NCBI RefSeq assembly: GCF_053078305.1
Contig: NZ_CP166879.1
Reading direction: 5' to 3' (one strand)
DNA length: 64,000 nucleotides
Positions 11,797 through 36,117 of the stretch are shown here, piece by piece. Each line of letters begins with the position of its first letter. Within the stretch, counting starts at the first letter, position 1. A program made the position numbers and the translations under genes. The notes under the pieces were generated by a model. It saw only the letters and a list, made by a program, of their open reading frames with translations. It searched no databases and was not told the origin of the DNA.

Positions 11797-12234
11797 TCAA
11801 TGCACCACAACAGACTCGCCGGATGACCCGCCGTCGCTGAAATACGCTTTCCGGTAAACGGCCTGGACAGCATCATCATGTGCATCAATTGCCGTGCTCA
11901 ACGCTTCCTGCGCCGCCAGTAATGCACGGCGCTCAACAGTGTCAAAAATACTGAGGTGATAACGCAGTTCACGCGGAAGAACAGTCAGGATAGCCGGAAT
12001 TAGTGCCTGAATTTTTTCAACAGCATCAGGCGTATCCTTTTCAAGCCAGCGAAAAATATTTTGTATATTCAATCCAATACCCTCTGTCGTAGAGGTGTCA
12101 TGCATTGGTGGATAAGTCATTTCAAGCTCAAAATATGCTGTCGCTATATCATCAGCGATTTTTTTGCGCCCTACCCTCGGATAAAGCAGCCACGCATTCA
12201 TCGCCATGCGGATGTGCTCATGCTTGATTTTCAT
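11797..12234 (-). CDS. YdaT-like protein (cII-position gene)
   Basis: 145-aa ORF directly downstream of the cro-like gene, as ydaT is in Rac. Confidence 0.45.
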   Translation of the reverse strand: MKIKHEHIRMAMNAWLLYPRVGRKKIADDIATAYFELEMTYPPMHDTSTTEGIGLNIQNIFRWLEKDTPDAVEKIQALIPAILTVLPRELRYHLSIFDTVERRALLAAQEALSTAIDAHDDAVQAVYRKAYFSDGGSSGESVVVH

Positions 12235-12491
12235 GAATCAACTCCCGCCGCTGCTTGTGCGTTAGCCTGATACTCAACAGGTAAACCATCGGTTGGATTA
12301 GGGTATTTATCAGGGCGCAATTCATGCGGAGTTACTCCCCAGTCAAGCGCCTCACATGCTGGTATAACCTCCTCCGCTGGCACTCGTTTTTTAAACCACC
12401 CACTTATGGTTTGCGGTGTTTTACCAAGACGACGCCCTAATTCTGATTGGCTCATTATTGACAGGATTTTCACTTGAGTACTTTTTTGCAT
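12231..12491 (-). CDS. Cro-like HTH regulator (YdaS-like)
   Basis: 86-aa ORF with XRE-type HTH (SQSELGRRLGKTPQTISGW); divergent from the cI-like gene. Confidence 0.6.
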   Translation of the reverse strand: MQKSTQVKILSIMSQSELGRRLGKTPQTISGWFKKRVPAEEVIPACEALDWGVTPHELRPDKYPNPTDGLPVEYQANAQAAAGVDS

Positions 12492-12519
12492 GTTTCCCTC
12501 CGAACTTTACGATGACACC

Positions 12520-12566
12520 GATGATTACAAATTTAAATTTAAATTTCAACTTCTATTTGTAATGCC
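12520..12566. promoter_or_regulatory. Putative oR operator/promoter region
   Basis: Inverted TTACAAAT...ATTTGTAA arms (12525-12562) in the 126-bp divergent intergenic region; related motif recurs at 13765-13819. Confidence 0.4.
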
Positions 12567-12617
12567 ACTTATCAATTTTTTCTGTAGGATCGCGGAACTA
12601 GTTTACGAGGGGTGGTG

Positions 12618-13010
12618 ATGATCTTTGTAAAACGCCTTCAGCAGGTGTTGCAGGAATTGAATATAAACCAGTCAGAGCTGGGAAGACGTCTTGGTGTAAA
12701 ACCCCAATCCGTGCAAGGTTGGTTGAAAGGCGTGATGCCAAGAATGGATAAACTGGAAAAATTAGCAGAGCTCTCACAACATCCCGTCCATTGGTTCTTT
12801 ATGGAAGAAGAAACTCTCGGCGATAAAATGGCTGTATCCAGTAATGACAACCAACCGCAACTTACAGAACAACAACGAAAAATCATATCGCTTTTAGATG
12901 AGTTACCTCAAAGCGACGCAGAGCAGATCATTCGTGATATGGAGCAAAAACGCGATTTCTATAAACGGAAACTTGAAGAGTTACTGCGGCAGAAAAACAA
13001 AACTGCCTGA
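12618..13010 (+). CDS. cI-like repressor (RacR-like, HTH only, no peptidase domain)
   Basis: 130-aa product from ATG 12618 (track ORF begins at GTG 12612); XRE HTH NQSELGRRLGVKPQSVQGW; RBS GAGGGG upstream. Confidence 0.6.
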   Translation: MIFVKRLQQVLQELNINQSELGRRLGVKPQSVQGWLKGVMPRMDKLEKLAELSQHPVHWFFMEEETLGDKMAVSSNDNQPQLTEQQRKIISLLDELPQSDAEQIIRDMEQKRDFYKRKLEELLRQKNKTA

Positions 13011-13056
13011 TGCATTCCTTTTCTGGAACGAGCATCAGGCAAATGACTAGCAGATT

Positions 13057-13416
13057 TTATAATCCAACCAGGCTTTCCAGGGGGATACCAAATTGATTAT
13101 GAAGACGGCGAATCATTGGTAACGTAAGGCTTCTGGTACCATTCAACACCTCATAAACCCGATTTTTTTTCCCAATTGCGGGTTCCAAATCTTTCACAGT
13201 CAGCCCCTGCTGTTCCATGCGAAATCTTATAGCTTCAATTGGGGATGGTGGCTCAATGGGATAATGTTTTTTTTCATATTCCTCTATTAGCAAACACATC
13301 ACCTCAAAAAAATCCCCCTCAGGCGTGTCAATTTCGGGCTCATTGTCGAACATGGGTTCAACAGCACGCAACGCGGCTTCATAATCTTGCTCTGTACGAA
13401 TAGGTTTGATGTTCAT
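13057..13416 (-). CDS. higA: HigA-family antitoxin (C-terminal HTH)
   Basis: 119-aa ORF; C-terminal HTH LTLPMIRRLHNQFGIPLESLV resembles K-12 HigA; directly follows the toxin gene (toxin-first order typical of hig loci). Confidence 0.8.
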   Translation of the reverse strand: MNIKPIRTEQDYEAALRAVEPMFDNEPEIDTPEGDFFEVMCLLIEEYEKKHYPIEPPSPIEAIRFRMEQQGLTVKDLEPAIGKKNRVYEVLNGTRSLTLPMIRRLHNQFGIPLESLVGL

Positions 13417-13418
13417 GC

Positions 13419-13721
13419 TTACTCCAGTTCGATGGTATCAGCATCAATAGCATCGTATTCCTTGTGGTTTCCGATGAATTTAACAAATACCCATCCTCGC
13501 TGATACGCAATTGCAACAATTAAACGGTAATGATTACCTTTTATGTTGAATACCACGCGCCGGTTTTTCAATATACTGGCCGTTCGGTATTGTGCCTTAA
13601 TGTCTGCTGGGCTTTTCCAGTCAGCTTTTGCCGCCTCATCCACCCATGCCCTTAGCGGTTGTTCTGCATCAGGATTCTCCGCCCAAAAATCCCTGAGTGT
13701 TTTAACTGAGATAATCTTCAT
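13419..13721 (-). CDS. higB: HigB-family toxin (RelE/ParE superfamily mRNA interferase)
   Basis: 100 aa from ATG 13721 (track ORF extends to TTG 13766); C-terminal FIGNHKEYD motif as in K-12 HigB; 2-nt gap to higA. Confidence 0.75.
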   Translation of the reverse strand: MKIISVKTLRDFWAENPDAEQPLRAWVDEAAKADWKSPADIKAQYRTASILKNRRVVFNIKGNHYRLIVAIAYQRGWVFVKFIGNHKEYDAIDADTIELE

Positions 13722-13764
13722 AACTGTATAGTAGTCCCATTTTGGGACTGATGCAACAGCTCGC

Positions 13765-13819
13765 AATTACAAATTTAATAATAAACATGTTGACCAGTTA
13801 AATTTTAATTTGTAAATTG
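13765..13819. promoter_or_regulatory. Putative oL operator region, overlapping the presumed higBA promoter
   Basis: AATTACAAATTTAA ... TTAATTTGTAAATT inverted arms, same core as the oR motif. Confidence 0.35.
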
Positions 13820-13995
13820 TATCCATAAACCCACCCCGCCCCACAGAACGCAGGGCAATACTTCGAGTTACCCGGCAGTGGTCAGGGGTTAAGTAGCCAG
13901 CCTGAGGCGTATGAACATGACGGCGGGGATTACGTTTAACTATGCAGCAGGTTTTTTGTTCCGCTACCCCGGCGTTAAGGGGAAATGAGGTCAAC

Positions 13996-14148
13996 ATGGA
14001 TACGCTCAATCTTGGCAACAACGAATCTCTGGTATGCGGTGTGTTCCCTAACCAGGACGGCACGTTTACCGCGATGACGTATACCAAAAGTAAAAAGTTT
14101 AAAACCGAAGCTGGCGCGCGTCGCTGGTTAGCCAGAAACACTAACTGA
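13996..14148 (+). CDS. YdaF-like small protein (DUF1391)
   Basis: 50-aa product MDTLNLGNNESLVCGVFPNQDGTFTAMTYTKSKKFKTE... closely matches Rac YdaF; RBS GAGG 6 nt upstream. Confidence 0.6.
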   Translation: MDTLNLGNNESLVCGVFPNQDGTFTAMTYTKSKKFKTEAGARRWLARNTN

Positions 14149-14960
14149 TTAGCACCAGTAAAAACAGGTTGCCACTGGTTAATTTACCCTGAAAAGTCAG
14201 GGCACAACAGAAAGCACACGGCGAAGGCGTCTTTTCCTTAGAAGGCTTGTCGTTAGATTTCTTCGACCGTGTGCTTCCGGTTGTGGCAATCCGCGAAATG
14301 GCGCGGCGGTAAATATGGCTGGGGGTTTTTATTTCTTTTCCCCTCATTGAGGACACCGGGTTGTCAGGTTGACCATATGCCTGAGTGACAACCCCGCCAC
14401 AACATCTCCATGTTTCAATGGCAGTGGTACCTTTGGCGGCATCAGTTTATTAGCTTTCTGATGTCCGCCCTTTTTAAAGTGAATTTTGTGATGCGGTGAA
14501 TGCGGCTAAGCGCACGCGGAACAGTTAAAACCGTAAAGTGGTCTTTTACGGGGCGTAACGGGCATACTTCTGTATTCCGGCGTTAATTGTTAACTGGTTA
14601 ACGTCACCTGGAGGCACCAGGCACTGCATCGACAAAGTTCACTTCGGTGATGAAAGGTAAGAGAAAATGTTGAATGTAGCTATTGAAAACCAGAACGGGT
14701 GGAATTATAGTGCACCTGCACCTCATAAAGCGGGTGCCGGGATTGCTACCCCGATGTTCATCATGGCGCATAACCGCGCTCAGGCGTTTTTTTTATGCGT
14801 AATGCACAGCCACATTCAGATTATGGTGGGGCGTGCAGGGCAGCCGCAAGGCTGGCCGGGTTCCATGATGACCGGTTGTAGCAACCCTGTGCGTCTCACC
14901 ACCCATGAGATTGCTACCTCCGGTGGTGAGTTAATGAAATTCATCATGGAGGCTGCCATC

Positions 14961-15518
14961 ATGGCTACTATCCCTGCCCTTTCTCACCCTGAAATTACTA
15001 TCGCCAATGGGCGTGCTGTTACATCCTCTTTAGCTGTTGCCGAGTATTTCCGGAAACCACACAAAGATGTACTGGCAAAAATTTCACGTCTAGACTGTTC
15101 AGCAGAATTCACTGAGCGAAATTTTTCGCCCAGTGAATATACCGACTCAACCGGGCGCAAACTCCCTATGTACCAAATCACCAAAAACGGCTTCGTTTTC
15201 CTGGTGATGGGCTTCACCGGCAAAAAAGCCGCTGCATTTAAAGAAGCCTACATCGCTGAGTTCGATCGCATGGAGAAAGAACTGCGCCAGAATAACGCCC
15301 CGTCTCCCGACAAAATGATTCACGGGGACGGACGTACCCTGGTTATCCGTCTCGACGAACACGGCAATATCAAATTCACTGAAACCGTTCCTGATGGTGC
15401 AATGGTCTGCACCCTGGATACCTTCCAGTTTTATCTGGAGAAACAAGGCTGGACTCTTGTAAACCGGAGCGCAATTAAAAATATGACTGTGGAGCAATTA
15501 CTAAAAATTCATTGTTGA
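14961..15518 (+). CDS. Rha-family phage regulatory protein
   Basis: Rha N-terminal signature ITIANGRAVTSSLAVAEYFRKPHKDVL; GGAGG RBS before ATG 14961; track ORF begins at 14667 but the 5' extension looks non-coding. Confidence 0.65.
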   Translation: MATIPALSHPEITIANGRAVTSSLAVAEYFRKPHKDVLAKISRLDCSAEFTERNFSPSEYTDSTGRKLPMYQITKNGFVFLVMGFTGKKAAAFKEAYIAEFDRMEKELRQNNAPSPDKMIHGDGRTLVIRLDEHGNIKFTETVPDGAMVCTLDTFQFYLEKQGWTLVNRSAIKNMTVEQLLKIHC

Positions 15519-23619: not shown

Positions 23620-23791
23620 TATTTCCTCCAGACTGTTTCACAAAGTGTACGACAAAGCCGACATGCCAACCATGCAGCTAATACGAATGAATGAGAGCAA
23701 AAGCGGGAAATATGTCTATATGTTAGTAAGTATGATTAAAGAAAAATTTTGACACATTATTATTCGGGCGGTCTTTTGACAGGAGCTACCT

Positions 23792-35862: not shown

Positions 35863-36117
35863 GCCTCGTTTCCCTCATACTGGTTTCTGGTGGAAAAGAA
35901 AACAGTGATTACTAAATGTGCAATCACAGTTAAGCAATACCGCGAATCATAACTGCCGTCAATGCGCAAAATTCACGCCACTGTCATATTTGTGAGCTAC
36001 ACGGGCATGTCGGTTGTACAAAAAATGTGAAGAGGAACAAATTTTTCCGCACGTTAGAAACAAAAAAACCGCCTCAGGCAACATACCGGAGACGGTTATA
36101 TTTACAAATCTTTATAA

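Follow-up and report, generated by a model that had tools for sequence, protein, structure and literature searches.

The intergenic region at 12492-12617 of the window, i.e. the whole stretch of 64,000 nucleotides analysed here, is the 126-bp gap of a divergent gene pair encoding an 86-aa YdaS/Cro-like protein (minus strand) and a 130-aa HTH repressor (plus strand). According to the RefSeq annotation, the pair belongs to a lambdoid prophage that adjoins yccA. The gene order starts with replication protein P and a DUF1376/DnaT-like replication gene, followed by YdaT and a small “transcriptional regulator” on the minus strand, the HTH protein on the plus strand, HigA and HigB on the minus strand, and a rightward series comprising DUF1391 (ydfA-like), Rha, dicB, DUF1482, a RecE-like exonuclease, xis and int. 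Searches of Pfam and NCBIfam confirmed the families of YdaS, YdaT, HTH_3, HigB, DUF1391, the DnaT-like replication protein and P. The features next to the gap (referred to as oR) and up to the region beyond higBA (oL) are:

11797..12234, minus strand: ydaT-type gene, functional analogue of CII, 145 aa (Pfam YdaT_toxin, E=1.2e-10)
12231..12491, minus strand: Cro-like (YdaS-type) HTH gene, 86 aa (Pfam YdaS_toxin and HTH_3)
12618..13010, plus strand: repressor gene, 130 aa, with an N-terminal Xre/434-type HTH, a disordered linker and two C-terminal helices
13004..13041: hairpin with a perfect 10-bp stem between the convergent repressor and higA genes
13057-13416 and 13419-13721, minus strand: higA and higB (RefSeq annotation; HigB_toxin E=4.8e-33)
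13829..14148, plus strand: conserved leader and first early-left gene, DUF1391, ydfA-like (13996-14148), shared with Qin/Rac-type prophages

The hairpin is a possible bidirectional terminator; it was not called by a terminator scan. For the conserved P_L leader (13829-13995), no Rfam family was found and the predicted fold was no better than that of shuffled sequences (z=+1.07).

The segment 11700-14200 is 99.8% identical to E. coli FHI_NMBU_10 (NZ_CP046539.1) and about 99.6% identical to the chromosomes of O26, O103 and O111 STEC. Among 5,426 complete E. coli genomes, 147 carry the repressor together with oR, and a block that begins in the 3' end of the repressor gene, spans higBA and reaches oL is likewise present in 147; all of the repressor-carrying genomes also have higBA and oL. 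DNA to the right of about 13829, taken alone, is common to thousands of prophages with other immunity types, including Qin of K-12, and this break in homology corresponds to the expected start of transcription from P_L. At the left edge, homology with the phages Tritos and Evi, which are of other immunity types, returns in the 3' end of cro and in ydaT. Phage GenBank records gave partial matches only (cro 3' end/ydaT and P_L leader), and none of them had this immunity type. Where another immunity type occupies this position, the equivalent promoters are surrounded by dyad motifs of a different kind, as exemplified by AAAACTGT/ACAGTTTT at a PaaR2-RelB-ParE locus and yet another motif at an O157 LexA-type locus. 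With gene families and module boundaries directly established, we consider that the locus probably forms the lysis/lysogeny (immunity) module of an E. coli prophage that is lambdoid and belongs to the CP-933P/Qin/Rac type. The first-pass annotation, made from the sequence alone, had described a divergent cI-like/cro-like switch, and both the gene families and the comparison with relatives support this description.

Candidate operators at oR and oL

Inverted arms within the 126-bp region, and the same inverted core about 1.2 kb away past higBA, had been pointed out earlier, and both were recovered here. Each arm is an exact copy of TTACAAAT, located at 12525-12532 (plus strand) and 12555-12562 (minus strand) in oR and at 13767-13774 (plus) and 13808-13815 (minus) in oL. 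A shared inverted 7- or 8-mer pair in both intergenic regions was found in none of 20,000 dinucleotide-preserving shuffles. Three of the arms match the 9-mer ATTACAAAT exactly, and the remaining arm differs from it by a single nucleotide. In total, five exact copies of TTACAAAT are present in the 64-kb window, counting both strands, compared with 2.28 expected. The motif search for further copies, which had been proposed along with the arms, thus returned a single additional one at 36102. This copy, as well as the position-weight-matrix (PWM) site at 23736 discussed below, is located in host DNA beyond the integrase, outside the prophage, and both were judged to be chance matches.

Eleven relative loci with diverged repressor-cro spacers were fetched for comparison. 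Ten of these and the window form an indel-free register block; the remaining locus (L038), which has a 9-bp deletion, was left out. Across all aligned loci, three 19-mers occur at offsets 1, 20 and 45 from the left arm, and their mean match at the 12 specified positions amounts to 9.7, 10.9 and 9.6 of 12, respectively, against a background of 4.45 ± 1.56. The predicted operator consensus is most likely TTRCAA-N7-TTGYAA, with a length of 19 bp. As TTGCAA reads identically on both strands, offsets 7 and 33 give secondary register peaks (8.5-8.6 of 12), and an alternative operator register is conceivable. The predicted operators and promoters are:

12522..12549, minus strand: P_R, predicted leftward lytic promoter from a consensus scan, with -35 TTGAAA at 12549..12544 and -10 TAATCA at 12527..12522, or AATCAT with an upstream TG
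12525-12543: O_R1, TTACAA-ATTTAAA-TTTAAA; its strong outer half is the left arm of oR, and it overlaps the -10/spacer of P_R
12544-12562: O_R2, TTTCAA-CTTCTAT-TTGTAA; its left half coincides with the -35 of P_R and its right half is the right arm of oR
12569-12587: O_R3, TTATCA-ATTTTTT-CTGTAG; overlaps the core of the predicted repressor promoter
12585..12590, plus strand: candidate -10 (TAGGAT) of a P_RM analogue, read from the sequence, with no good -35
13767..13785: O_L2, TTACAA-ATTTAAT-AATAAA; lies upstream of the P_L -35, and the left arm of oL is its strong outer half
13790..13818, plus strand: P_L, predicted early-left promoter, with -35 TTGACC at 13790-13795, a 17-bp spacer and -10 TAAATT at 13813-13818
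13797..13815: O_L1, GTTAAA-TTTTAAT-TTGTAA; overlaps the P_L -10, its strong outer half being the right arm of oL

The arms as such are therefore real, and most likely they represent the outer half-sites of adjacent 19-bp operators instead of one long inverted repeat. Furthermore, the arms of oR account for O_R1 and O_R2 only, and the third operator at 12569-12587 had been overlooked. Within the window, O_R2 alone is reasonably palindromic and is the only site with at most one mismatch from TTRCAR-N7-YTGYAA; O_R1, O_L1 and O_L2 each combine one strong half with a TTTAAA-like half. Sites with up to two mismatches from the bare 19-bp degenerate consensus are no more frequent in the window than expected (33 found, 34.8 expected), so the operator model rests on the conservation of the register across genera, which is directly observed like the motif statistics, and on the PWM. 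In a set of 18 distinct close E. coli variants from IMG/VR, variable columns are depleted in the operators (5/57 versus 28/69; Fisher p=3e-05). A perfect (AAATTT)3 palindrome at 12529-12546 was also considered as an operator and is explained as the spacer plus inner half of O_R1.

The PWM was symmetrised and derived from the oR sites of other genera alone, with neither window nor oL sequences included. Among the approximately 64,000 positions of the window, its hits 1-4 were O_R1, O_L1, O_L2 and O_R3, with scores of 22.2, 17.6, 15.5 and 15.4 compared with 14.9 for the best of 20 shuffled windows, where it should be considered that the matrix includes AT-rich spacer columns and thus favours AT-rich intergenic DNA. 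O_R2 ranked seventh, behind an overlapping frame-shifted 19-mer in oR (12531-12549) and the host-DNA site at 23736.

At oL, the PWM ranks 2-3 together with the comparison of relatives bear out that the same operator motif recurs at P_L beyond higBA. O_L1 is identical to the reverse complement of O_R1 at 16 of 19 positions and is kept as ...TTTTAATTTGTAG in Salmonella and Arsenophonus, and the hexamers of P_L are kept across genera. In leave-one-out scans, eight relatives showed two operators downstream of the repressor gene, spaced by 30-32 bp, and a ninth (L030, from Salmonella) showed a single, P_L-proximal site. Depending on the inserted cargo, these sites lie 61-895 bp beyond the repressor gene; no clear oL was found within the 3 kb fetched for L031 and L036. 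In three E. coli variants, the outermost T of the oL arms is changed to C on both sides, symmetrically, which fits the Y at that position in other genera. A central ACATGT palindrome in oL was rejected as an operator, as it varies among close relatives.

An alternative with a small but real chance of being correct takes the arms literally. Each region would then hold one long inverted repeat (40 bp at oR, about 50 bp at oL), in which the distal 8-9-bp arms are the sole specific contacts, bridged by a repressor tetramer or octamer over three or four helical turns and with no operators in between. Indeed, no other exact words in the window come close to the arms in conservation, the window's inner half-sites are weak, and the family member PaaR2 is octameric in solution (PMC8630535). 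The centre-to-centre spacing of the arms, 31 bp at oR and 42 bp at oL, differs by about one helical turn, which suits this reading; under the model of adjacent operators, the same difference follows from O_L2 being located one helical turn farther from its promoter than O_R2. However, a fixed register across genera is seen for the inner half-sites (TTTAAA-type; TTKCAA at offset 20) as well as for the whole third site at offset 45, and O_R3 would be left unexplained. Moreover, in Sodalis, Serratia and metagenomic relatives, O_R2 and O_R3 are each a near-perfect palindrome of 19 bp, including TTGCAAATATTAATTGCAA for O_R2 and a further one for O_R3 in Sodalis, and TTACAGAAAATTTCTGTAG for O_R3 in Serratia. 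We therefore favour separate 19-bp operators.

We infer the promoters and transcription starts from consensus hexamers and their conservation. The positions of the P_R hexamers are kept in 11 relatives, where the position of the candidate P_RM -10 reads TAGAAT or TAGTAT; this -10 was not picked up in the window by the promoter scan at 9/12. Relative to the predicted start of the repressor gene, the centre of O_R2 would lie at about -44 and that of O_R3 at about -19. Several of the half-sites are at the same time promoter hexamers, and part of the half-site conservation may consequently reflect promoter function. Another reading would turn the shared motif into promoter DNA: P_R and P_L (perhaps also the repressor and higBA promoters) would descend from one duplicated promoter and have AT-rich, -10-proximal sequence in common, while the repressor binds elsewhere or recognises something different. 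A 20-nt direct repeat of 85% identity linking 12524-12543 and 13766-13785 would suit such a duplication, and so would the strong half of O_R1 over the P_R -10, the left half of O_R2 at the P_R -35 and the strong half of O_L1 over the P_L -10. We nevertheless regard this explanation as improbable, since inverted half-sites are also found where no hexamer is needed (O_L2 upstream of the -35, both halves of O_R3, and the right half of O_R2), the half-sites of 11 genus-level relatives with invariant recognition helices form dyads whose spacer is always 7 bp, and other immunity types have different dyads around equivalent promoters at the same position.

Regulatory proteins, cargo slot and proposed switch

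The repressor matches HTH_3 as its sole Pfam domain, and no Peptidase_S24 was found. Its AF2 model consists of helices at residues 2-61, a linker (62-83) and helices at 84-127 (84-94 and 100-127), where the N-terminal domain is a five-helix fold similar to 434 and P22 c2; Foldseek aligned the model to the N-terminal domains of P22 c2, 434 and SinR with an rmsd of 1.1-1.6 Å. A search of PDB sequences returned generic HTH matches only, with no DicA or PaaR2 structure among them. The NCBIfam model of DicA (NF007257) is matched over nearly its full length (repressor residues 3-129 to model positions 6-132 of 135), but with 49.9 bits the score is below the cut-off of 101, which marks the repressor as a relative of DicA and not as its orthologue. 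Identity amounts to 31% with a PaaR2-type repressor, 25% with RacR and 22% with DicA, and a C-terminal helical “LPESD...EELL” region is common to this repressor, DicA, the PaaR2-type repressor and CI of phage Tritos (22-33% identity). Based on these comparisons, the protein fits the DicA/PaaR2 family as well as or better than RacR. Its previous designation as an HTH-only, non-cleavable and RacR-like repressor remains valid for the HTH without S24; “RacR-like” is less exact than a DicA/PaaR2-family assignment, given the low identity to RacR and the absence of the RacR operator (see below).

Homologues down to 47% identity were obtained by protein search from Salmonella, Sodalis, Arsenophonus, Phlomobacter, Serratia and metagenomes. 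The recognition helix VKPQSVQGWL and the whole HTH are invariant in 13 aligned repressor sequences, and the Cro partners in the relatives keep an HTH of the form SQSELGR..GK.PQT. The top PDB match of the Cro-like protein is the Xylella prophage Cro 3bd1, and it shares 48% identity with YdaS of a PaaR2-type locus and 18% with DicC. In line with the HTH pattern SELGRRLG that the first-pass annotation had noticed in both regulators, repressor and Cro each contain QSELGRRLG followed by PQ[ST][VI].GW, with 15/26 identical residues (E=2e-09). At the DNA level, the HTH-coding segments constitute a 48-nt inverted repeat of 71% identity (12408-12455 and 12663-12710). Since their recognition helices are related (PQSVQGW and PQTISGW), repressor and Cro analogue should bind the same operators. 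Overall, it is very probable that the repressor and the Cro-like protein bind the shared motif at both promoter regions.

The YdaT protein matches 8bt1 (YdaT of CP-933P, E=5e-29) and 3c4r (E=2e-30) in the PDB. In CP-933P, YdaT was footprinted on O_M, a TTGATT-N6-AATCAA motif at the end of ydaS (PMC9986795). The present locus contains an element equal to it in motif and position:

12224..12241: YdaT box TTGATTTTCATGAATCAA at the ydaS stop/ydaT start, the sole exact TTGATT-N6-AATCAA in 64 kb

Between the repressor gene and oL, the HigB gene is located upstream of the HTH antitoxin gene, 2 bp apart, and HigA contains HTH_3 at residues 63-115. The pair has regulatory elements of its own:

13728..13756, minus strand: predicted higBA promoter with -35 TTGCAT at 13756..13751, a 17-bp spacer and -10 TACTAT at 13733..13728
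13734-13748: HigA-type palindrome GTCCCA-TTT-TGGGAC in the spacer of this promoter, read from the sequence

The Salmonella copy of higBA (L030) has an equal promoter/palindrome geometry. Another higBA promoter overlapping O_L2 (-35 TCAACA, -10 TAATTG) was considered and dropped in favour of the one at 13728-13756 with its palindrome conserved in Salmonella. In Arsenophonus and a metagenomic contig the slot between the repressor gene and oL is empty; elsewhere it is occupied by small ORFs, and by higBA in E. coli and Salmonella. Further Salmonella relatives contain a PLD-family gene (L031) or a PaaA2 antitoxin and a TM2 protein (L036) in this place. The presence of the oL pair in relatives with varied or no cargo supports the view, already taken in the earlier annotation, that an ancestral oL was separated from the repressor gene by the insertion of higBA.

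It is highly unlikely that the shared motif is read by HigA (in toxin-antitoxin autoregulation) or by YdaT and not by repressor and Cro: HigA is an HTH protein and O_L2 is found a mere 10 bp or so upstream of the predicted higBA -35, but higBA has its own palindrome, the oL pair is kept in relatives without higBA, the YdaT motif differs and sits at 12224-12241, and every relative contains the shared motif along with the repressor/Cro pair.

For binding by repressor and Cro analogue, the layout of sites suggests the following switch, in which we infer the assignment of proteins to sites as well as activation, cooperativity and looping. In the lysogen, the repressor would occupy O_R1/O_R2 and O_L1/O_L2 and shut P_R and P_L: O_R1 would cover the -10/spacer and O_R2 the -35 of P_R, and O_L2 and O_L1 would bracket the -35 of P_L and cover its -10. 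By analogy to related switches, repression of P_R and P_L is expected to be cooperative and possibly looped. The repressor would probably stimulate its own weak promoter and, at high concentration, repress it from O_R3, which is positioned over the promoter core. Likewise by analogy, the Cro analogue is expected to share the repressor's sites but prefer them in another order, and YdaT, acting at its box at 12224-12241, to serve as a CII-like establishment factor. As the repressor has no S24 autocleavage domain, induction should need an antirepressor and not RecA-stimulated self-cleavage, and an antirepressor is also what the comparison with related systems leads us to expect. Once relieved, P_L would drive ydfA-like, Rha, dicB, the exonuclease, xis and int; the early-left operon carries isrK/C4 RNAs with the Rha-family gene. 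These RNAs and that gene, together with the C-terminal helices of the repressor, are faint hints at antirepressor-type induction and at a higher-order oligomer like that of PaaR2.

The centre of O_L2 is located about 55 bp upstream of the predicted, nearly leaderless start of higB. The repressor at O_L2 could conceivably also set the expression of higBA across the divergent promoter pair, as PaaR2 does with paaA2-parE2, although we consider this a speculative extension of the model. If true, the toxin-antitoxin output would be wired to the lysogenic state, and the slot between repressor gene and oL would be a dedicated site that puts defence/addiction cargo (higBA, PLD-family nuclease, PaaA2 and others) under the control of the switch.

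Relation to known immunity systems

The closest parallel in layout is prophage CP-933P (Sp12) of E. coli O157:H7, where the footprints of PaaR2 and YdaS overlap on oR, both proteins repress P_L, and a toxin-antitoxin pair is found in the same slot (PMC8630535). Both loci combine a short, non-cleavable repressor with a divergent YdaS Cro analogue that has a related HTH, contain YdaT as a CII analogue with the TTGATT-N6-AATCAA box at the end of ydaS (exact here), and repeat their operators in oR and at P_L past the toxin-antitoxin pair (paaA2-parE2 in CP-933P); replication genes and a dicB-type early-left operon are shared as well. In contrast, the present repressor is about 31% identical to the PaaR2-type protein, and TTRCAA-N7-TTGYAA takes the place of the GTTTAGTAA-based 18-bp repeats of CP-933P, whose half-site GTTTAGTAA is absent from both intergenic regions. 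Furthermore, the toxin-antitoxin genes are co-transcribed with the repressor in CP-933P, whereas higBA is encoded on the opposite strand with its own promoter, and the repressor gene here has a Shine-Dalgarno leader instead of being leaderless.

Similarities to the dicA-dicC/dicBp region of Qin (K-12) include the architecture of the repressor without a cleavage site, the early-left operon (ydfA-like, dicB, DUF1482) and a leader homologous from about 13829. DicA is non-cleavable and relieved by an antirepressor, and antirepressor-type induction is expected here, too. According to PMC3441716, DicA bound at Oc also activates the weak promoter of its own gene. The two systems differ in the repressor (22% identity to DicA; 49.9 versus 101 bits) and in the Cro analogue, which is of the YdaS type and not DicC; TTGTTAGTCATAACTAACAA, the operator Oc of DicA, was found in neither intergenic region. 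The racR-ydaS-ydaT region of Rac likewise has a divergent repressor and YdaS with YdaT downstream, a DUF1376 replication gene, and three inverted-repeat operators proposed in its intergenic region. RacR differs in being longer (158 aa), described as two-HTH and 25% identical to the present repressor, and neither intergenic region contains a match to the RacR operator WTAGGC-N3-GCCTAW within two mismatches. The absence of the RacR, DicA and CP-933P operator motifs points to a separate immunity specificity.

We therefore propose that the locus represents a previously uncharacterised immunity specificity with the predicted operator TTRCAA-N7-TTGYAA, which is carried by STEC prophages, including those of O26, O103 and O111, and also occurs in Salmonella, Serratia and the insect symbionts Sodalis and Arsenophonus. 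The exact candidate sites should be useful for predicting superinfection immunity and the cross-talk of co-resident prophages. After CP-933P, the locus is the second example of a toxin-antitoxin pair between a non-cleavable repressor gene and P_L.

Compared with lambda, the predicted arrangement is familiar: three operators over divergent P_R and P_RM-like promoters, related ones at P_L about 1.2 kb away, and a cargo slot that corresponds to rexAB. Lambda CI activates P_RM from the OR2 position, and the geometry of OR2 and OR3 at P_RM is resembled here by an O_R2-like site about 44 bp upstream of the predicted start of the repressor gene and an O_R3-like site over the promoter core. Differences from lambda are the lack of an S24 domain in the repressor, two evident oL operators, 30 bp apart, and the absence of an N gene after P_L. 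The HTHs of repressor and Cro resemble each other, as they do in 434, and ACAA/TTGT is present in the strongest half-sites, so that recognition, also considering weak alignments, may be 434-like; the 434 operator is ACAA-N6-TTGT with a length of 14 bp, compared with 19 bp and a 7-bp spacer here. The design of this switch is ordinary, being known from CP-933P, Qin, Rac and lambda, and it leaves the general understanding of lambdoid switches unchanged; what is new is its specificity.

Probable kinship of the two regulators and copies of the switch

The HTH-coding DNA of the Cro-like gene (12408-12455) and of the repressor gene (12663-12710) forms a 48-nt inverted repeat (71%) flanking the intergenic region, which suggests that the DNA-binding domains of the two proteins are paralogous. 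The endosymbiont copies of the module look decayed: in the Phlomobacter locus (L038, about 2910-2940) O_R1 and O_R2 are fused by a 9-bp deletion, and in one Arsenophonus locus (L037, 2738-2884) the Cro-like gene is truncated to 48 aa, with the repressor and operators still present. Past the prophage integrase, two further motif copies were judged to be chance occurrences, both lying in host chromosomal DNA: a match to the operator matrix built from oR sites of other genera (TTAAAGAAAAATTTTGACA, score 14.2, 23736-23754) and the fifth copy of the 8-mer TTACAAAT (36102-36109).

A putative higBA promoter and the higA-repressor junction

The following elements flank higBA:
13728-13756, minus strand: putative higBA promoter (-35 TTGCAT, 17-bp spacer, -10 TACTAT)
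13004-13041, where the repressor gene and higA converge: perfect 10-bp inverted repeat, TGCCTGATGC / GCATCAGGCA, with an 18-nt loop

higBA appears to have a promoter of its own, the spacer of which holds the perfect palindrome GTCCCA-TTT-TGGGAC (13734-13748); the same geometry is found in the Salmonella locus L030. As only 6 nt separate the end of the putative -10 from the higB ATG (13721) and a Shine-Dalgarno sequence is absent, the higB mRNA is suggested to be nearly leaderless. The inverted repeat at the junction may act as a bidirectional terminator; it was not called in the terminator scan.

The P_L leader and predicted RNAs of the early-left operon

The region downstream of P_L carries the following elements:
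13829-13995: untranslated leader, from P_L to the ydfA-like gene
14422-14470, plus strand: DicF-like match (Rfam, 36 bits, sub-threshold)
14718-14794, plus strand: isrK (Rfam, 58 bits, above threshold)
14819-14906, plus strand: C4 antisense RNA (Rfam, 78 bits, above threshold)

Over 4,300 E. coli genomes, with differing immunity types among them, share the leader in conserved form, and it is still recognisable in the loci of Sodalis, Arsenophonus and Serratia. It matched no Rfam family, and its predicted fold was no better than that of shuffled sequence (z=+1.07). Since the isrK and C4 matches both fall within the 5' part of the annotated Rha ORF (283 aa, 14667-15518), the true start of this Rha or antirepressor gene is probably further downstream than annotated. 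Expression of the gene may be subject to antisense control, by analogy with P1/P7.

The cargo slot and the YdaT box compared with known phages

Among relatives, the contents of the slot between the repressor gene and oL differ.

Slot contents in E. coli and relative loci
higBA: E. coli, Salmonella L030
PLDc_2 protein, 424 aa: L031
PaaA2 antitoxin and TM2 protein: L036
Small ORFs: L035, L041
Empty: L034, L037, L040

The slot resembles a hot spot for morons or defence genes, which would correspond to rexAB in lambda. At the other end of the switch, one further element was matched:
12224-12241: perfect YdaT operator box, TTGATTTTCATGAATCAA, extending across the stop of ydaS and the start of ydaT

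This box, the sole exact match in the 64-kb window, matches the footprinted YdaT site O_M of CP-933P (PMC9986795) exactly, both in its form and in where it lies.
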